DNA of 64,000 bases from a virus (Duplodnaviria; Caudoviricetes): IMG/VR virus record IMGVR_UViG_2814123203_000002, positions 1-64,000 of that record, one strand, 5' to 3'. A program made the translations under genes and the position numbers. Shown one piece after another: positions 5,881 through 62,523 of the stretch; the first letter of the stretch is position 1; the number at the start of each line of letters is the position of its first letter. Under the pieces are notes generated by a model. That model did no database searches. It saw only the letters and a list, made by a program, of their open reading frames with translations, and was not told where the DNA came from.

Positions 5881-6244
5881 AATTTCACCTGCCTTTTTTT
5901 AAATTTCAATAACTATATATTACCATTTAGATAAAAAAATGTAAACCAAATAGATCAACTTTCACAAGCAAAGAAAAAGCCTAATTCCTGCGACTTAAGA
6001 TTGTAAAGATATTTGAGAATACTGGAAGATTTCATATCAAGGACAAGTAAAATGGTGGATAAAGATAAAGAACAAGGAATAAAGGGGCGATTTATCAATG
6101 AGGATGAAGACAGGAGTAGATGGTTCAATCAAGTAGCATCAAAACAGCGATACTTTTTCTGTCTTGCTGAATTCCTCGTATTTTGCTACAATATGTAAAA
6201 AATAAACATTTATGGTATTATGGGATTAGAAAGGAGTTGAAAAA

Positions 6245-7593
6245 ATGGATAACCGGATTGCTTTGCGAATTGAACTTGAAAAAGCCATAGCAGAAACTGG
6301 ATGTACGTTATCAAGTATTGCAGAATACGGCGGACTATCTATCGGTAACTTAAGTGCCAGCCTGCAACATAAGGAAAAACTTCAACCTATCACCATGAAA
6401 CAATTAGATACGTTAACAGAAGCCTTAGGCTTACCCGAAGGACATTACTATGAATATTACCTTGCTGAGGTTTTTTCTCATAACAACAAAGTTTCCATTC
6501 CCAGAATGAAATCCTTTTTAATTCGCTGTGCCCAACTGGGGAAAACCGACTTGATTATGAATGCGATCCATATCTTGGTGGAACATCCTAAGTACACCGA
6601 ACTGCTTTTTTCTGTAGCAGAGGAATTGTATTTGAATGGTCTTGTTGAAGAGTCGCTTCTTTTTTACGAAGAAATCATTCAGGAAGAAAAGTACAATCAC
6701 TCTGATCGTTTGACCATCAGTCATTATCGAATATTTAGAGCCAGTATTGGGTCAGATGCTGAAGAAAACTACAAAGCAGTGATTCTTTTGAAGACTTCCG
6801 CAAAAACCTCCCTGAAAATTTTCAGTTGGATGCTTTGTTAAAGCTATCCAAAGTTTGCCTCTCCCTTAAAAAATGGAATTTAACTGAGCAATTTGCCGAT
6901 GAATTAAGAATACTTTCTACGATCAGGTACCAAGAAGAACTGCTGCTAATGAAAGAGGGCAAAACAGAACCATTGATAACAGAACGCCCTCTTGTTGTGT
7001 ATTATGGTCAATCCTATCTAATAAAAAGTATTGCCCTATTTAAACAAGGTCATTATGAGAGAGCTAAGCAATATATAGAAGGATACGAAGATCTTAGTTG
7101 GTTTGAGATTTTAGATGAACAAGGTAAGAAAGAAGTAGACAAGTTTCGTTTGTGGGCAAAAGCGAATAAATATAGTGTAGAACTACTTTTAGGAAATGTC
7201 AGCGTGCTTGATGAGTATACAAATTATCTTACCGAACACCCTAACGAAATTTCCCTTGGTCTGCTGGTGATTATACAATCTGCAAATGCATATGGATTTA
7301 GCATAGATCATATCTTAGAACGATTCCCTGAGCCTTCGCAAGAGGATAATAATGTTGTGAAGATTGAACGATATTTTAGATTTCATTACCAGAAATCGAT
7401 TTATATGTTTAATCAGCAACGTTTTGCAGAAGGGCTAGAAAGTATTTTATACTGTCTGTCTTTGGCTATTTCTAACAAGGAATATTTTGAAACTGTATTA
7501 TGTACAGCACAGTTTCAGCATTATCTGAACTATGCTTCGGATTCCCAGAAAGAACAATTCGCGAATATCATGAAAGAGGTGTTGAAAAGGTGA
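6245..7593 (+). pseudogene. HTH-TPR RRNPP-type receptor split by a 1-nt frameshift
   Basis: ORFs 6245..6841 and 6826..7593 join (VILFEDFRKNLPENFQLDALL) if one T is added to the T-run at 6786-6789; real mutation or sequencing error. Confidence 0.75.
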
Positions 7594-7727
7594 AAATTAA
7601 GAATTGGATTCTATGTATTGCAATAGCGATTACGTTGATGAGTGGATCTGCTTTTAGTGCAACGACCCAAAAAGCAGAAACGAAAAATCCTGTTATGGTT
7701 TTTATTGAACATGGAGCTGATGATTAA
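7590..7727 (+). CDS. 45-aa quorum-sensing pro-peptide
   Basis: MKIKNWILCIAIAITLMSGSAFSA signal peptide plus C-terminal ...VFIEHGADD; GTG overlaps the receptor stop. Confidence 0.75.
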   Translation: MKIKNWILCIAIAITLMSGSAFSATTQKAETKNPVMVFIEHGADD

Positions 7728-7769
7728 AAAATGTCCAGAACATGAGATTCAACTTTGTTCCATGAAGCT

Positions 7770-7810
7770 AAAAGACTGCTTTCCTTATCATCAAGGGGAG
7801 CAGTCTTTTT
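7770..7810 (+). terminator. Rho-independent terminator
   Basis: AAAAGACTGCTTTCCTT...AAGGGGAGCAGTCTTTTT. Confidence 0.8.
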
Positions 7811-7914
7811 AACGATTTGGATGAAACGCGTGTTTGTTCTAGTAGTCGCAAAAGATTGTCGAGAGTTATTACTTTAATTTTGAGAATGCGCTAGGCTTGC
7901 GGGTTATTTTTTTA

Positions 7915-7944
7915 TTTACACATTTCCATATCCTGTGTTATTAT
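7915..7944 (+). promoter_or_regulatory. SigA-type promoter for repeat-mimic RNA 1
   Basis: TTTACA-N18-TATTAT with TGn extension; ACACA...TGTGT arms in the spacer. Confidence 0.55.
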
Positions 7945-7953
7945 GGAGACACC

Positions 7954-8020
7954 AACGCAGGGCGTATTGAAATTTATTCATTTGCTTAAACTTTGACCGT
8001 AACGCATGGCGTTTTGAAAT
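7954..8020 (+). CRISPR. Mini array: two degenerate CRISPR-like repeats with a 17-nt spacer
   Basis: AACGCAGGGCGTATTGAAAT (7954-7973) and CTTTGACCGTAACGCATGGCGTTTTGAAAT (7991-8020); ACGC/GCGT stem and (A/T)TTGAAAT 3' end as in class 1 Cas6-processed repeats. Confidence 0.6.
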
Positions 8021-8038
8021 ATGCGTCTTGTGCTTTGT

Positions 8039-8066
8039 AAAAACCCTACCTTATGGTAGGTTTTTT
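8039..8066 (+). terminator. Terminator of repeat-mimic RNA 1
   Basis: CCTACC-TTAT-GGTAGG followed by a T-tract. Confidence 0.75.
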
Positions 8067-8097
8067 CCTTTTTACATCATATTGACTTTCAAAACTC

Positions 8098-8127
8098 TTG
8101 TACCACATCCAAAAGATGTGCTATAAT
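8098..8127 (+). promoter_or_regulatory. SigA-type promoter for repeat-mimic RNA 2
   Basis: TTGTAC-N18-TATAAT with TGc extension; CACATC-N5-GATGTG palindrome in the spacer. Confidence 0.7.
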
Positions 8128-8133
8128 TCAATT

Positions 8134-8167
8134 GTCGCACCCCACTTGGTGGTGCGTGGTTTGAAAT
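8134..8167 (+). CRISPR. Solitary type I-C-like CRISPR repeat
   Basis: GTCGCACCCCACTTGGTGGTGCGTGGTTTGAAAT matches the I-C pattern GTCGCAC...GGTGCGTGGATTGAAAT; starts at the predicted +1. Confidence 0.8.
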
Positions 8168-8181
8168 AAATTTACTTTTAT

Positions 8182-8219
8182 GAGGAAACCTATCTTTATA
8201 AAGATAGGTTTCCTCTTTT
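8182..8219 (+). terminator. Terminator of repeat-mimic RNA 2
   Basis: Perfect 16-bp stem GAGGAAACCTATCTTT/AAAGATAGGTTTCCTC followed by TTTT. Confidence 0.8.
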
Positions 8220-8224
8220 AAAGA

Positions 8225-8513
8225 ACCCCACCTAAATGGTAGGGTTTTTGCTTACCATAGATGGTTTATATCGTAGGTCTGAGACTCCTCGCCGTCCCAT
8301 TCACTTATGTATTCCTCTATTGTATTGCGCACGTGTTCCCCTGCTTTTCGATACGACATCCCAATATGATCAGCTTCTCCATACACATGGCTCTTGAGGC
8401 AGCCCATATCAAAAAATATGTGCGGCTTGTCAAGTACCACTAAACAGCAAGCCTTGATGATTAGTGTGGGTAAATGCGTACCCTTCTTGATTTACATAAA
8501 GAATAGTCCCCCA
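8225..8513. repeat. Segment with a diverged, internally deleted copy at 63358-63509
   Basis: Shared hairpin, TTGCTTACCATAGATGGTTT, AAAAAATATGTGCG, CCTTGATGATTAGTGTGGGTA and TACATAAAGAATAGT blocks in the same order. Confidence 0.85.
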
Positions 8514-8550
8514 GTCGAACGACTGAGTAAATGCTTTCTTTAGTTCATCC

Positions 8551-8820
8551 TTATACTTTACTTTCCTCCTTAAGATTCAAATATCTTTTATGGTAGTATT
8601 GCTGACATTCTGAGCAATACTCAGGGTTTTCTTTGTTCCCGTGTGGGGATGATGGAAAGTCCATCTGTCCGCCGCATTGAGGACATAACCCTTTCTCTGT
8701 ACGTTCTTCTCTAATTCTCCTTTGCCTGGTTCTCTCAAAGCACTTTCGAGAGCAGTCTACTGCCCGAGGATGTTTGGAAACAAAAGATTTTTGACAATCG
8801 GGAGCTATACACTTTTTCAT
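8551..8820 (-). CDS. Small double zinc-finger-like protein
   Basis: Four Cys pairs: CIAPDC, CSRKC, CPQC, CSEC. Confidence 0.65.
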   Translation of the reverse strand: MKKCIAPDCQKSFVSKHPRAVDCSRKCFERTRQRRIREERTEKGLCPQCGGQMDFPSSPHGNKENPEYCSECQQYYHKRYLNLKEESKV

Positions 8821-9087
8821 TCATCTCAATCCTTCTATGTCCATGATAAAATATGAGGTCATCTCATCCACATATTTCTTTTTTGATGTTTGTATTCGGC
8901 GGGAAGCTCCATACATTTTCTTTCCTTCACAATATACATTGGAGGATGAGGATATTATTATTTCGCTTATTTCACTTGACATATCCCAAGTGAAATAATA
9001 GTATCTTCCATATGTACCGCCTGAGACCCTGTCATACAATTCCGCTGCCCTTTCTTGAAATTCTTTTATTAGCTCCATTTCAATCAC
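8821..9087 (-). CDS. Hypothetical protein, 88 aa
   Basis: Translationally coupled to the downstream ORF; GAGGTG at the start region. Confidence 0.55.
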   Translation of the reverse strand: MIEMELIKEFQERAAELYDRVSGGTYGRYYYFTWDMSSEISEIIISSSSNVYCEGKKMYGASRRIQTSKKKYVDEMTSYFIMDIEGLR

Positions 9088-9132
9088 CTCTGATAATTGT
9101 AATAATCATGTTCATCGTAGCATGGAATTAAA

Positions 9133-9213
9133 GTTGTAATTTAGTACCTATTAAGGAATTGAAACATGGATTTGTATTTTATCTGTTATGAAATACCTAT
9201 AAGGAATTGAAAC
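9133..9213 (+). CRISPR. Mini array: two type I-B-like repeats with a 19-nt spacer
   Basis: GTTGTAATTTAGTACCTATTAAGGAATTGAAAC (9133-9165) and GTTATGAAATACCTATAAGGAATTGAAAC (9185-9213) fit the GTTT...TACCTATAAGGAATTGAAAC family of Bacillota. Confidence 0.8.
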
Positions 9214-9266
9214 AACTAATCCAATGTTTCTTTAGAAGAACCCATTATTTTTTGGGGCGACCGCCC

Positions 9267-9770
9267 TCAGAGCCATTCTACGTCGTACCGTTCTTCGACG
9301 CGATCAATCACTTCGGATGTCTTTTCCTCTATGATTTCATCAAGTGCGATTTCTTCCCATTTTAAAATAATTTCTTCTGCTTTTTCGGGCAACAACTCGG
9401 AAAACGTTGCCCACTTGTACAGATTATCTTCGATATATCCGTCGTAACGCCCTTCGGCGTTTTTACGTAAGATCTCCCTGTATTCCTCCAAAAGGGATGA
9501 ATCTCCGTCTAGTTCGTTTTTAAGTTCGTCGTCCATATGCAAATGGTCGATGGGGTAGAACCATTTTTGCGTTGTAATCCCAATAATGTTCTCTCCCTCT
9601 AGCCAGTTGTTATGGCCCGCGAAAACCTCGGTGAAGAACTCTGTTGCTTCTTCACCATTGTGCCTAGCGTAAAGTTGGACCTCGCCACCGCGTTTTCTGT
9701 ACTCAGCGGCTTTCTTAATACACTTTTCTACCGCTATTTTACACTTTTCTAAATCAATTTTAATTTTCAT
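9267..9770 (-). CDS. Acidic hypothetical protein, 167 aa (anti-CRISPR candidate)
   Basis: AGGAGG RBS, own promoter, D/E-rich C-terminal half; function inferred from context only. Confidence 0.6.
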   Translation of the reverse strand: MKIKIDLEKCKIAVEKCIKKAAEYRKRGGEVQLYARHNGEEATEFFTEVFAGHNNWLEGENIIGITTQKWFYPIDHLHMDDELKNELDGDSSLLEEYREILRKNAEGRYDGYIEDNLYKWATFSELLPEKAEEIILKWEEIALDEIIEEKTSEVIDRVEERYDVEWL

Positions 9771-9826
9771 ATATACATTACCTCCTGAATTTAATTTTAT
9801 TTTCCATTTCTTTCTTACTGTTACTT

Positions 9827-9877
9827 ATAAATCTACACGAACGTGAAGATTTTGTCAACACGTTCGTGTAGATTTAT
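9827..9877. promoter_or_regulatory. Perfect 19-bp inverted repeat enclosing a minus-strand promoter
   Basis: ATAAATCTACACGAACGTG-N13-CACGTTCGTGTAGATTTAT; minus-strand TTGACA (9858-9853)-N17-TAGATT (9835-9830). Confidence 0.85.
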
Positions 9878-9915
9878 TTGAATTTATTTCGTAGAATAGG
9901 TATGAGGTGGTAATT

Positions 9916-10128
9916 ATGCTGAGCTTTGATCCTCTACGTGAGTGGTTTAACAAAACGGGAAGACAACGCACTGATATGTATATAGACTGCGGATTCGCTC
10001 CGCAAACAGTCGCGAAAGTATGGGGAGATCGGTTTCCGATACGAACCGATGTGATAGAGAAAATCTGCGAAACATATGGCCTGCGGATCGAGCAGGTACT
10101 TGTTTGGAAAAACGAGGAGGATAAGTAG
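9916..10128 (+). CDS. Small Cro/C1-type HTH protein
   Basis: MLSFDPL...GFAPQTVAKV...TDVIEKICETYGLRIEQVL is an HTH_26-like pattern; GAGGTG RBS. Confidence 0.8.
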   Translation: MLSFDPLREWFNKTGRQRTDMYIDCGFAPQTVAKVWGDRFPIRTDVIEKICETYGLRIEQVLVWKNEEDK

Positions 10129-10130
10129 AA

Positions 10131-10757
10131 ATGGATATTCAAATGTTTGACCCGAAAAAGGGAGTGCCAGCCACGGAGAATGAGCGAACCTATTTCCGGA
10201 ATGGCTACGGAGTGGGGATCGGTGTAATCTATCTGCCGTCGAAAAACATGCCGGAGATGTTTACGCAAAATTGGCCGACAATGGAGGTGCGTGGCGAAAC
10301 GGTGCATGCTGCGCCAGAATTTCGCGTTTTTGAAACGAAGAAATCGGCCGTGAGAATATTCCAGTACAATCCGGTACAGTTCCACTTAAAAGAACACGTT
10401 TTTAACGGCATCCAACTGTTCCATTTGCTTATTGCGTGCTTAGACGGTAATCCCGAACCATTTTCCGGGGAAACAACGCTGAATCCAGGTGATCCGTTGG
10501 CAGCTCGTTTTTTAGAAGTTATGGCGGAATCTCCGTACTTCGTGATTAATACATATGCCAAATTTGAGTACTTCCAAACGTTCTTTGCGGACAACCCGTT
10601 CAAAGAGGCGGTAAGATCGTTCCAATACACTGATAAGCCGCAGCCTAAGGATGTTTTTATGTGGGCAAAGGCGGAGTTAGAACGAACGGTACCGTTTAAG
10701 TATCGGGAGTTTGACTGGGAACCGCCCCAGAAGACGTTACGTGTTAATTTCGTGTAA
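10131..10757 (+). CDS. Hypothetical protein, 208 aa
   Basis: GAGGAGG RBS; coupled to the HTH gene. Confidence 0.65.
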   Translation: MDIQMFDPKKGVPATENERTYFRNGYGVGIGVIYLPSKNMPEMFTQNWPTMEVRGETVHAAPEFRVFETKKSAVRIFQYNPVQFHLKEHVFNGIQLFHLLIACLDGNPEPFSGETTLNPGDPLAARFLEVMAESPYFVINTYAKFEYFQTFFADNPFKEAVRSFQYTDKPQPKDVFMWAKAELERTVPFKYREFDWEPPQKTLRVNFV

Positions 10758-10812
10758 ACAGGAAAGAGCAGGAGGAACAAAAAACCTCACTGCTCTTCTT
10801 GGAGGGGACTAC

Positions 10813-10920
10813 ATGAAGCGTAACTGGGTATTAGACGAGTTGATTGAGCATTTTACCTTTCTTCCAAATGAGGGGCACACTATCACGTATCATCGGACCC
10901 AAATCAGAGAGTTTTTAACG
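10813..10920 (+). pseudogene. Remnant of a Tn3-family transposase N-terminus
   Basis: MKRNWVLDELIEHFTFLPNE joined directly to GHTITYHRTQIREFL, two normally separated DUF4158-type motifs; GGAGGGG RBS. Confidence 0.55.
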
Positions 10921-10924
10921 AGAT

Positions 10925-11440
10925 TTAAAGACGACTCTTCTTTTTGTTTTTCAATTCTTTTCTTACGGTTTTTTGCCAGTGCATTCTTTTTTCTTTAATA
11001 AAGTAGGTTAGTCCAATAGAAAAAGCATCTGATTCATCTTCATTTGAAAAATTGATATCAGGATATTTCAAAAGAAGGGTATTTTGTATCTGTTTTTTTG
11101 TAGCATTTCCATGCAATATAGTTGCTTTACATGTCTTTGGCATGTAACAATATTGTTTCTTGTCTTTAAACATCCATCTTATTAAACCTTGTGCCATACA
11201 TAAAACCTTGCTTGAATTGTTGTGTCTAATAAAGACATCTTCTAAAACAACAACAGATGCGGGAAGTTCTTGCAAATGTTTTGATACACCTTTAAAGATT
11301 ATATTTAATCTTTTACCATAAGATAAACCTTCTTTTGTAGGGAATGATGTAATTACTACAGGATCAAAAGTATTTAAATTAAATATTACGAGTCCAGTCC
11401 TAGATAGACTTATATCAAATGCATATAGGAATTCTTTCAA
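10925..11440 (-). CDS. RuvC-like Holliday junction resolvase
   Basis: AFDISLSRTG, VVLED, GNATKKQIQ, DESDAFSIG. Confidence 0.85.
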   Translation of the reverse strand: MKEFLYAFDISLSRTGLVIFNLNTFDPVVITSFPTKEGLSYGKRLNIIFKGVSKHLQELPASVVVLEDVFIRHNNSSKVLCMAQGLIRWMFKDKKQYCYMPKTCKATILHGNATKKQIQNTLLLKYPDINFSNEDESDAFSIGLTYFIKEKRMHWQKTVRKELKNKKKSRL

Positions 11441-53673: not shown

Positions 53674-54897
53674 CTAATCTTTATATGGGTCATATTCATT
53701 TGAACCTGCCATACACACACCAATAGGTCTAAGAACATGTCTTATATATAAAGTATCTTTATGGGCCTCTAACACGCCTCTCAGTTGCTTATAAACAAAT
53801 GGACTTTCATCTGTACCAGCACCCCGCAATTCGACACCATAGCTCTTTATTGCTTTATACATTTGTTCTGAAGTAATTTTTCCACCACTCCTAGTTCGTG
53901 TCTTCCAGTTCATTTTCCCAGCTGCCTCTGTTCGACTCATTATACGACCAGCTCCATGAACAGTACTCTGATAAGAATCTTTATTCTCCTGCGAGTCTTT
54001 ACCTTCTACAATAACTGATACATCTCCCATACTTCCACCAATAAATCCCCATTGGTTAGGAGCTAAAGGCGTTGCTCCTTTGCGAACAACAATAACTTCT
54101 TTTCCATAATGCTCTTCTTTCCAAGCATAGTTATGGTGATTATGAACCGAAAACATACATTCTGCTTGTAAAATTTTTAATACAGTATCAATTACATAGT
54201 CTCTTCCAGCATAAGCATATTTACCAGCTAAAGTCATTGCCTTATAATACATATCACCTAATTCAGAATTCATATCTAGCAATGTAGGAGCTTGATCCAT
54301 ACTTTCGCCTGGTGCTTTATCTGAAAATTTTTTTCCAGCAGCTAAATTCAAAAATCCACTTGCTGTTTTATGTCCAAATCCTCTACTCCCAAAATGGTTG
54401 GCAATCCATACATCTTGTGTTTCCTCTTCAAGAAGTATATCAACAAAATGATTTCCACTACCTACTGTTCCTAATTGGTTTCTTGCTAATTCTTTTAATT
54501 TGTTATGTTCCTGAATGCCAATTTGTTTATAAACATTCCAAAGTTCATCATCAAACAACTCATGATCTACTTTTTCTTTATTGCCTCTGCCAACTCCAAA
54601 TGAAATATTTTTAGAAATCTCATCCATTATTGAAGAAATGTTATTTTTAATGTCATCATATTTTATATTTGTCCTAATTGCTTTGTTCCCACATGCAATA
54701 TCATAACCTACTCCACTAGGAGAGATTTGATTATTATAAACCACCACCCCACCAACAGGTTGACTATATCCTTTGTGATGATCAGCCATTAGCAAAACTT
54801 GTTCAACACTTCCATAGTTAGAACAAATAACTGCTTGTTCTACTGCATTTTGTAAAGGTGTTCCCCAAACTCTGATACCATCAATAATCTTCACCAT
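53674..54897 (-). CDS. rtcB: RtcB family RNA ligase
   Basis: VGYDIACG, GSGNHF, HNHHN, RKGAT, HGAGR, DESPFVYK. Confidence 0.95.
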   Translation of the reverse strand: MVKIIDGIRVWGTPLQNAVEQAVICSNYGSVEQVLLMADHHKGYSQPVGGVVVYNNQISPSGVGYDIACGNKAIRTNIKYDDIKNNISSIMDEISKNISFGVGRGNKEKVDHELFDDELWNVYKQIGIQEHNKLKELARNQLGTVGSGNHFVDILLEEETQDVWIANHFGSRGFGHKTASGFLNLAAGKKFSDKAPGESMDQAPTLLDMNSELGDMYYKAMTLAGKYAYAGRDYVIDTVLKILQAECMFSVHNHHNYAWKEEHYGKEVIVVRKGATPLAPNQWGFIGGSMGDVSVIVEGKDSQENKDSYQSTVHGAGRIMSRTEAAGKMNWKTRTRSGGKITSEQMYKAIKSYGVELRGAGTDESPFVYKQLRGVLEAHKDTLYIRHVLRPIGVCMAGSNEYDPYKD

Positions 54898-55174
54898 ATT
54901 TTCCTCCATATCCCATTTAATTTTGATATAAAATTTAAAAATTAAATCATTACGAAATTTCATCTACAGTGCTTTATTATGAATTTATAAAAATTGCTTA
55001 CTTTTATTTGGATGCGATATACCTCAACATCGTATCCATCAATATTATCAAATTCATTTAAATTATGGGTAGAATAACCGCAATTGTGCAAATTGCAAAT
55101 AAACTTCATAGGTAAACCTAACTTCTTCATACGCCTCTTCCGGTGTATTTCTATACTCTAATTGCCTCATTTCG

Positions 55175-61353: not shown

Positions 61354-62523
61354 TTATTCGTTTGTGTCCTTTGTGTCTAATTCTTCCGTCAATGCTTCTT
61401 GATGTTCATTAGCCGCTGCTATCTCTTGAATTCCATCTTCTGAAACTGCTTTAATCCTCTGTGCAGCTTTTTCAAATTCCTCAATGTTTTCTTCAAAATG
61501 GGCATTCATAGCCGCGACACGACCAAGTACATTTTGTGATTTTGCTGAGCCAGCAGTGCAGTGCATACCGTACGATCCTTGGCCACTAGTGTACTTTCTA
61601 ACTAAAAACTCTTTTGCCCAAAGTCCAAACGCTATAGGACTTACTTCTTTTTCTATTGCCTTTTTAGCTGTTACGAACAATATTGGTGTATGCACTTTTT
61701 TAAGCATCTTATTATTAGTTTTTTGGTCAAACTGTTCGAAAGCCTCTTTCATGTAATTTGTCAATTTAATCATTTCATCAAGAATTGTTTGATGAAATCC
61801 TGTTTCTTTAAATGCTAAAGAAAATTCTTTGACATCTTTACCTTGAAGACCTCCTTCTCTACCGCTAACAAGCATAATACTTTGAATAACAAGCTCAGTA
61901 TCAAGTTTCCTTTTTCTTGAATTTGCTGAAATGTTTACATATTTTCGGAAGAAGTCGCTATTAGCAATTTCATTTACATGTTTCATTACGCTACCTCCAA
62001 CTTCAGAACGCAGCTTTTCAATTTTGTTAAGTGCTGTACCGTTATTTAACCGACTAAACAAGTCATCAACTTGTTCTTCAGTCATATTCTTCATCTCTAC
62101 AAGAGTTAAAGAATATTCCCCGAAGATATCGCGTAATTCTTTATCTAGATCTTGGTAGTATTTTCCTTCAATATCAATTTCTATAATTTTTGTTTCTCCA
62201 TCTATTTCCTTTTCTACAGGTACCTTTGGAGACTTAGTTACTGGAAACTCACCTTGTCTGAACGCCATCAATGTCGATAAACGTTGTTGACCATCAATTA
62301 CCCAAAGATACTTATCGTCTGTACTTTTTACATAAATATCTGGAATCGGAAAATCAATCAGAGCACTATGAACTAACAAACTCTTTTGATCTTCAGACCA
62401 TACTTGGTTTCTCTGTACTTCTAAGTCAAATCTGATTCTTTTTCTGTTCCTAACAAACCAGTTGATTGACTTGTCGGATTTCGTTTTTTTAACAACTGAA
62501 AGTTCTTTACTCATTTTTCGCAC
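61354..62523 (-). CDS. DUF262 (GmrSD N-terminal/ParB-like) domain protein
   Basis: QRNQVW, PIP, VIDGQQRL, FSRLNNG. Confidence 0.88.
   Translation of the reverse strand: MRKMSKELSVVKKTKSDKSINWFVRNRKRIRFDLEVQRNQVWSEDQKSLLVHSALIDFPIPDIYVKSTDDKYLWVIDGQQRLSTLMAFRQGEFPVTKSPKVPVEKEIDGETKIIEIDIEGKYYQDLDKELRDIFGEYSLTLVEMKNMTEEQVDDLFSRLNNGTALNKIEKLRSEVGGSVMKHVNEIANSDFFRKYVNISANSRKRKLDTELVIQSIMLVSGREGGLQGKDVKEFSLAFKETGFHQTILDEMIKLTNYMKEAFEQFDQKTNNKMLKKVHTPILFVTAKKAIEKEVSPIAFGLWAKEFLVRKYTSGQGSYGMHCTAGSAKSQNVLGRVAAMNAHFEENIEEFEKAAQRIKAVSEDGIQEIAAANEHQEALTEELDTKDTNE

Follow-up and report, generated by a model that had tools for sequence, protein, structure and literature searches.

What would a lone type I-C-like CRISPR repeat, framed by its own promoter and terminator, do for a phage that carries it? 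We addressed this question for a unit at positions 8098-8219 (+ strand) of a 64,000-nt stretch of viral DNA, hereafter the window, which makes up the initial 64 kb of an IMG/VR record of 100,830 nt that is classified as a provirus. A sequence-only reading of the locus had proposed that the unit encodes a Racr, a short RNA without content beyond its repeat and terminator that sequesters Cas5d/Cas7.

The core of the unit is a 34-nt type I-C-like repeat, GTCGCACCCCACTTGGTGGTGCGTGGTTTGAAAT, at 8134-8167 (+), which occurs as a single copy in the window at up to three mismatches (0 of 100 shuffles contained a match). In the computed fold this psi-repeat forms a bulged 8-bp hairpin (8136-8156) followed by the 11-nt handle TGGTTTGAAAT (8157-8167), and under published criteria for Cas5c (PMC8524198) the predicted cut would fall after position 8156. 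The promoter, read from the sequence at 8098-8127 (+), consists of TTGTAC (8098-8103), a weak -35-like element with three of six consensus matches, an 18-nt spacer, and the extended -10 element TGCTATAAT (8119-8127). The latter ends 6 nt before the repeat and places the first G of the repeat 7 nt past the -10, in agreement with the transcription start near this G that had been proposed. Thus, a stand-alone unit with one I-C-like repeat, its own extended -10 and its own terminator is present as first described.

Downstream of the handle lies the psi-spacer, a guide-like stretch, AAATTTACTTTTATGAGG, at 8168-8185 (+), whose position and length are those of the guides in the host units described below and whose last 4 nt enter the terminator stem. 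Exactly 14 nt (8168-8181) separate the repeat from the terminator palindrome, as had been estimated. The terminator hairpin, GAGGAAACCTATCTTTA/TAAAGATAGGTTTCCTC followed by TTTT (8182-8219, +), was identified by palindrome detection and computed folding; its arms of 17 nt each (8182-8198 and 8199-8215) are 100% complementary and fold as a 15-bp stem with a 4-nt loop. The predicted RNA spans 87 nt, from 8134 to about 8220, so that the earlier figures of about 85 nt for the transcript and 16 bp for the stem were both close. A 96-nt stretch containing the repeat hairpin and the terminator folds with a minimum free energy of -37.7 kcal/mol, compared with -15.8 ± 2.9 kcal/mol for shuffled sequences (z = -7.5; none of 200 shuffles was equally stable).

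A consensus scan listed neither the promoter, whose -35 is too weak for its rule, nor the terminator, which has only four T past the stem. Both calls therefore rest on reading of the sequence and on conservation in three phage lineages. No open reading frame of at least 40 aa overlaps 8098-8219, and the window contains no Rfam match at gathering thresholds. The closest element with partial similarity belongs to cassette (a), discussed below, and ends 114 nt upstream. The unit is accordingly solitary and intergenic, lies on a virus, and has its promoter directly upstream, as do solitary repeat units.

Comparison with type I-C array repeats places the repeat in their sequence family. Pattern scans for I-C-like repeats yielded 41 viral stretches and at least 120 stretches in genomes, and the stretches listed from both scans all carry GTCGCAC...GTGCGTGG(A/T)TTGAAAY. 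The exact pattern of the window's repeat had no match in viral contigs, and the closest array consensus among the matches listed, GTCGCACCCCACACGGGGTGCGTGGATTGAAAT, lies at an edit distance of 4. The unit shares with the array repeats GTCGCAC...GTGCGTGG.TTGAAAT, the GTCGC...GCG hairpin, an 11-nt tail of the kind that ends in ATTGAAAY, with one tail base different, and UGG past the stem. It differs from them in being a single copy, in its length of 34 rather than 32-33 nt, in its bulged stem, and in carrying GGTTTG instead of GGATTG. The loop had been described as 2 nt longer; the hairpin is indeed 1-2 nt longer than in 32-33-nt array repeats, but it is bulged and does not simply have a longer loop. 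Single I-C repeats that directly follow a promoter and precede a hairpin by a few nucleotides also occur in several viral contigs (L032 at about 12842, - strand; L003; L008; L016), and a build of single repeat, short tail and terminator may be common among I-C-type viral RNAs.

The GGATTG-to-GGTTTG change noted earlier is confirmed, and every phage copy of the unit has it. Across a collection of one genome per species for 185,579 species, from which P. larvae is absent, the T form was found in seven stretches: five are single odd copies within arrays of GGATTG consensus, and two stand alone, have no usual-type repeat in their vicinity, and look like chance matches that probably lie in protein-coding sequence. 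The A-to-T change was never an array consensus in the collections searched; P. larvae, absent there, could carry T itself. A literature search for the handle string GGTTTGAAA returned nothing related. For Cas5c of Bacillus halodurans, the main determinants were reported to be the stem base and the U-G-G past the cut, with the loop and the 5' overhang irrelevant (PMC8524198). The window's repeat keeps the stem base and UGG, features reported to matter for Cas5c/Cas5d.

We detected neither a CRISPR array nor a match to the Cas5 family (PF09704) anywhere in the 100,830-nt record. To this extent the Racr proposal holds, in that the locus is an autonomous, conserved, repeat-like RNA gene of phages with neither an array nor a Cas5-family gene match beside it. 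A role at the level of DNA has been proposed for viral solitary repeats (PMC10651486), and viral mini-arrays against other viruses have been mentioned (PMC10120712); the repeat might thus serve as a recombination or attachment site into host arrays, or as the one-repeat seed of a viral mini-array against rival phages. We consider such a role highly improbable. The repeat is intact and internal in a provirus-classed record, so it is not the attachment site there, and the record offers neither a second repeat of this type nor a spacer of normal length. The tight frame of promoter and terminator, together with homology to an RNA regulator, points instead to an RNA product.

The unit is conserved among phages. 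Region 7600-9300 matches 32 phage records, all of Paenibacillus larvae phages, and the unit itself matches five records that represent three phages, Scottie, Heath, and Halcyone, in all of which it is unannotated. The unit also matches two IMG/VR contigs, both identical to Heath. All phage copies keep TG.TATAAT and TCAATT (identical or nearly so), the repeat with the T-form handle, and the terminator core AAACCTA.C...GATAGGTTT. The outer stem bases of the terminator vary between phage copies yet still pair, while the core is invariant in three phage and three host units. Covariation analysis was uninformative for both helices of the unit, whose pairs are almost invariant.

The surroundings of the unit set it apart from the remainder of the window, which belongs to a large phage of about 30% GC that encodes DnaE, ribonucleotide reductase, RecJ, DnaB, and RtcB and whose DnaE shares 55% identity with the Brevibacillus phage Sundance protein. 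From about 6000 to 10900, an island of 35-48% GC lies inside this phage, and only about 7950-10800 resembles P. larvae phages, at about 80-85% identity. A second copy of a CCCTACC..GGTAGGG terminator, at 8228-8245 (+), brackets the I-C cassette together with the copy at 8045-8060. Phage SV21 has one such copy, and the I-C cassette is missing exactly between the window's two copies; we conclude that the unit forms one module of an accessory island that is mobile.

Further along the island, a small Cro/C1-type HTH gene (9907-10128, +) is followed by open reading frames of no known family (10131-10998, +). Scottie shares them as its genes 22-24, directly followed there by the I-C unit; the HTH gene is possibly an Aca-like regulator associated with anti-defence genes. 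The small open reading frames neighbouring the unit could not be assigned to a family with Pfam or PHROGs, and no recognisable Acr protein gene lies by it. The phage also encodes a GmrSD-type restriction endonuclease domain protein (61354-62523, -) and an RtcB RNA ligase (53674-54963, -).

Mobility also bears on the possibility that the cassette is a decayed passenger, captured from a host I-C locus and carried in the island with no present function. Its position between two copies of one terminator and its absence from SV21 indicate that it moves as a module; in addition, no target was found for its guide-like stretch, and the window's host may lack type I-C. Against this, three diverged phage lineages, about 80-84% identical around the cassette, all retain an intact promoter, repeat, handle, and terminator, and the hairpin exceeds that of the host units in length and pairing, which is not an outcome expected of decay. 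We therefore regard loss of function as improbable.

To relate the phage unit to host loci, we surveyed 21 genomes of the genus that contains P. thiaminolyticus and P. dendritiformis, reached through the window's 425-aa HTH protein, whose relatives were found only in these two species. BLAST of the window region against these 21 genomes returned matches of 59-61 nt in G005 (E = 3.9e-11), G015, and G010. The alignment spans the -10, the repeat stump, the 11-nt handle, the stretch of about 17 nt, and the terminator, that is, the whole unit of about 87 nt. The host units share a common build: TGCTATAAT, about 5 nt, GTCGC-loop-GCG, TGGATTGAAAT, about 17 nt, and GAAACCTATC...GATAGGTTTC, with TG.TATAAT invariant among the three host units aligned. 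They keep only a 3-bp stump of the repeat hairpin, whereas the phage units carry it at full length. In G015, the unit lies on the opposite strand in the 184-nt gap between Cas3 and Cas5d, within a locus encoding Cas3, Cas5d, Csd1, Cas7, Cas4, Cas1, and Cas2 and flanked on each side by I-C arrays.

A covariance model built from three phage units, including the window's, and these three host units gave full-length matches at E ≤ 3.4e-11 in 10 of the 21 genomes. Seven of the ten were outside the model and scored 60.8-65.3 bits, and two of the matches adjoin Cas5d matches; the window's unit, against a model that includes it, scored 96.2 bits (E = 2.9e-22). At E ≤ 0.01 the model matches 17 of the 21 genomes, the many weak matches in G015 falling within its I-C arrays, and it matches five further genomes in a 151-genome sample of the family. 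The host units lie at L251 6148-6229 (-), L252 7723-7801 (-), and L253 7982-8062 (+), and also in L361-L367 and L373-L377. The new point is that the whole phage unit of about 87 nt is, judged by its alignment, a homologue of a host type I-C self-regulating RNA, not a bare repeat.

The function of the host units is suggested by their own targets. In all ten genus units, the post-handle stretch of about 17 nt has a counterpart next to a TTC on the opposite strand, 64-86 nt upstream and immediately ahead of the cas5 start. With every sixth position left out of the comparison, 15-16 contiguous positions agree, and the omitted positions match in some units only; runs obtained with shuffled stretches did not exceed 10 (300 shuffles per locus). 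Guide and target co-vary across species (ATACG.TGTTT, ATATA.TATTT, ATACA.TATTT). TTC is a PAM in other type I-C systems too. It has also been reported as the PAM of the type I-C system of Xanthomonas oryzae.

A PAM-flanked, partial match to a cas promoter is the signature of CreR self-repression (PMC10120712; 10.1101/2023.03.10.532045), and the latter source mentions I-C examples by way of a supplementary figure. The Paenibacillus host units show this known signature, with mismatches confined to sixth positions. On this pairing pattern, the host cas3-cas5 units are CreR-type self-regulating guide RNAs, and they are of a compact I-C form in which a terminator stands in place of the second repeat. 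All ten host homologues are located inside a cas locus and target their own cas promoter; the window's unit does neither. It belongs to the same sequence family as the host CreR and cr-like mini-arrays represented by these cas3-cas5 units (10.1101/2023.03.10.532045; PMC10120712), but it is found on a phage, far from cas genes, with a full-length hairpin and an altered handle, and its guide-like stretch has no match to the relatives' promoters.

With respect to the RNA past the handle, the claim that the transcript has no other content is now doubtful, because the post-handle stretch and the terminator are homologous to units in host cas loci. What the homology says is that the 17-18 nt past the handle, and also the terminator, of the phage unit descend from a functional guide RNA. 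Phage units keep the handle-to-terminator spacing of the host; Heath's stretch is 6 nt longer (L164 2577-2600, compared with window 8168-8185), and these extra 6 nt equal one Cas7 step. The guide-like stretches of the window, Scottie, and Heath differ in the seed; between Scottie and Heath the differences fall at positions 5, 10, 11, 13, and 16, none of which is a sixth position.

Searches for a target of these stretches were negative. For the window, Scottie, and Heath, the best TTC-flanked partners in ten host loci of related species had runs of 3-7, no better than expected by chance. When metagenomes were scanned for TTC together with the window's stretch, 77 hits came up, and an I-C handle or the terminator lay within 600 nt of none of the 77; a search of the 100-kb record itself likewise revealed no target for this stretch. 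We also tried a pattern of handle, gap, and AAACCTA on viral contigs and set it aside: of its 25 stretches, 21 look protein-coding, most of them one conserved phage sequence, and the other four are two Heath-like contigs, one array, and one unclear case.

These results leave two live readings of the RNA. In one, the unit is a plain Racr, a decoy consisting of the repeat only, which would lock Cas5c, and perhaps Cas7, in useless subcomplexes, with the tail and terminator merely ending the transcript. A validated I-C decoy, RacrIC1, has been described (PMC10651486); like the window's unit, it is a lone I-C repeat in an intergenic region of a prophage, immediately preceded by a promoter and without cas genes in its vicinity. 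The full-length phage hairpin, set against the 3-bp host stump, would suit a better bait, and the guide-like stretch varies in the three phages while repeat, handle, and terminator are kept. The negative searches in the ten host loci, the metagenomes, and the record agree with a decoy, as does the recurrence in viral contigs L032, L003, and L008 of stand-alone I-C repeats with a promoter before and a hairpin behind.

RacrIC1 is co-transcribed 11 nt after an AcrIC5 homologue (PMC10651486). The window's unit differs from it in having a separate promoter and in a post-repeat part and terminator that recur in host regulators. Against a bare decoy stand the homology over the unit's whole length to host guides with a functional post-handle stretch and a terminator spacing that is kept or shifted by exactly 6 nt. 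Moreover, 10 of the 21 relatives carry the self-regulator, and sequestration alone is said to raise Cas output in such systems (10.1101/2024.10.29.618823). Sequestration of Cas5d/Cas7, as first proposed, thus survives as one of the two readings and is less favoured if the host system is self-regulated; we judge the plain decoy less likely than not, yet it is the main rival and a strong one, favoured by the full-length hairpin that host regulators lack.

The reading that we place first, with a confidence that is about evenly balanced, is that the phage unit is a viral mimic of the host CreR, a "Cracr". We rank it first because the post-handle stretch and the terminator descend, by homology, from a functional guide RNA, and because sequestration is said to fail against self-regulated systems. 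The preprint that makes this argument, namely that with sequestration alone cas genes are derepressed, describes a validated V-A Cracr (CracrVA1) composed of a single repeat, a guide, and a terminator, and predicts I-C Cracrs (10.1101/2024.10.29.618823). The window's unit has in common with that description the mimicry of CreR, its own promoter, a CracrVA1-like build, and a place beside other anti-CRISPR elements; it is similar to a host CreR and sits outside CRISPR-Cas loci on a mobile element. It departs from the type I examples in the text of the preprint, which are repeat-guide-repeat arrays, in being a type I unit of single-repeat build. The main text of the preprint does not mention Paenibacillus (10.1101/2024.10.29.618823).

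In the proposed mechanism, we infer that the unit is expressed, processed, and bound by Cas proteins and that it has a target in its true host. The unit's own extended -10 would drive an RNA that starts near the first G of the repeat, and host Cas5c would recognise the stem base and UGG and cleave past the hairpin. The product would comprise the 11-nt handle, a guide-like sequence of about 17 nt, and the terminator hairpin, which would replace the 3' repeat hairpin. Cas5c, Cas7, and Cas8c would assemble on this short RNA and be drawn away from real crRNAs. If the guide-like stretch matches the cas5 promoter region by TTC, the complex would in addition shut off cas5-cas8-cas7, without recruitment of Cas3.

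Several observations weigh against a Cracr. The searches above yielded a target for none of the three phage stretches, which moreover differ in the seed. The handle has the A-to-T change that is never an array consensus in the collections searched, the window's phage has a GC content of about 30%, and the helices are without covariation support. Inclusion as a Cracr in the preprint requires at least nine PAM-proximal matches to CreR, and the window's stretch reaches no match of at least nine positions to a host CreR guide or target in the genomes compared, which are stand-ins from related species; the preprint's own rule would file these units as "likely Racrs" (10.1101/2024.10.29.618823). Furthermore, only I-B and III-B systems are reported for the ERIC I and II strains covered in PMC13497268. 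At the level common to both readings, the locus is a genuine small RNA gene that is conserved among phages and probably acts as an RNA anti-CRISPR, and the Racr and Cracr kinds have both already been described.

On either side of the unit lies another cassette of crRNA-like appearance. Cassette (a), at 7915-8066 (+), contains a promoter, two hairpin-handle elements, and a terminator. A promoter scan identified TTTACA-18-TGTTATTAT at 7915-7944; it is followed by direct repeats consisting of a mini-hairpin and handle, first AACGCAGGGCGTATTGAAAT (7954-7973) with a 27-nt stretch after it, then AACGCATGGCGTTTTGAAAT (8001-8020) with a 23-nt stretch after it, and by the upstream CCCTACC..GGTAGGG terminator copy already mentioned. 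The two elements are 47 nt apart and carry (A/T)TTGAAAT. The covariance model, designated R1, matches the second half of this cassette (7995-8072; 26.3 bits, E = 2.2e-4). SV21 keeps the cassette, with the first short spacer unchanged, the second differing only at position 12, and two compensatory pairs in the second hairpin. As an array repeat the motif was absent from 401 genomes of the family, where scattered single hits with 0-1 mismatch occurred. From its sequence, cassette (a) looks like a two-guide crRNA-like RNA.

Cassette (b), at 9136-9240 (+), has two repeat copies, of 30 nt (9136-9165) and 29 nt (9185-9213), of the GTTTTGAA.GTACCTAT.AGGAATTGAAAC kind, which are 19 nt apart and followed by AACTAATCCAATGTTTCT. 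This repeat forms arrays in two Paenibacillus genomes (G007 and G020), and Scottie keeps both short spacers unchanged (17/17 and 18/18); the terminator that follows the cassette in Scottie is missing in the window. Cassette (b) looks like a further putative crRNA-like RNA. A search for targets of the short spacers of both cassettes in the G007, G020, G015, G005, and G010 loci gave chance-level runs only, the best being 12 contiguous positions within an open reading frame beside the array in L280.

Taken together, the three cassettes allow a wider reading, which as a whole we hold only tentatively: region 7.9-9.3 kb may be a mobile, RNA-only anti-CRISPR island with three independent crRNA-like cassettes directed against the I-C and the I-B/III-B repeat family of P. 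larvae and its kin. Its modules would be shuttled between unrelated phages, that is, the Sundance-like large phage of about 30% GC and small P. larvae siphoviruses, and the I-C cassette would be a reprogrammed CreR. As part of the same tentative reading, the full-length hairpin and the A-to-U handle would out-compete the host regulator and crRNAs for Cas5c, and the guide would silence cas5-cas8-cas7.

The host range of these phages bears on which CRISPR systems they would meet. P. larvae is reported to have III-B in both genotypes and I-B in ERIC I (PMC13497268), and an older preprint cites P. larvae SAG 10367 for two co-occurring type I systems, in a category of I-A/I-B or I-B/I-C pairs. Protospacers of P. 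larvae carry GA(A) downstream, equal to TTC on the other strand (PMC7998209). A type I-C system in some P. larvae strains is plausible. Relatives of the Heath lysin were found at 39 loci, none from P. larvae, and a DNA search with the Heath lysis region in the 401 family genomes gave 67-70% matches in 12 genomes, all in the thiaminolyticus/dendritiformis genus. AcrFinder is reported to have found no anti-CRISPR genes in P. larvae phages, and the Halcyone/Heath/Scottie group is reported without protospacer matches (PMC7998209).

A useful by-product of this analysis is a compact host I-C self-regulating RNA, present in 10 of 21 genomes of one genus. P. larvae phages are under development against American foulbrood of honeybees. 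RNA cassettes of the kind described here escape protein-based searches and are unannotated in deposited phage genomes. Should they prove active, such cassettes would account for the ability of some of these phages to withstand host CRISPR and would bear on the choice of phages.
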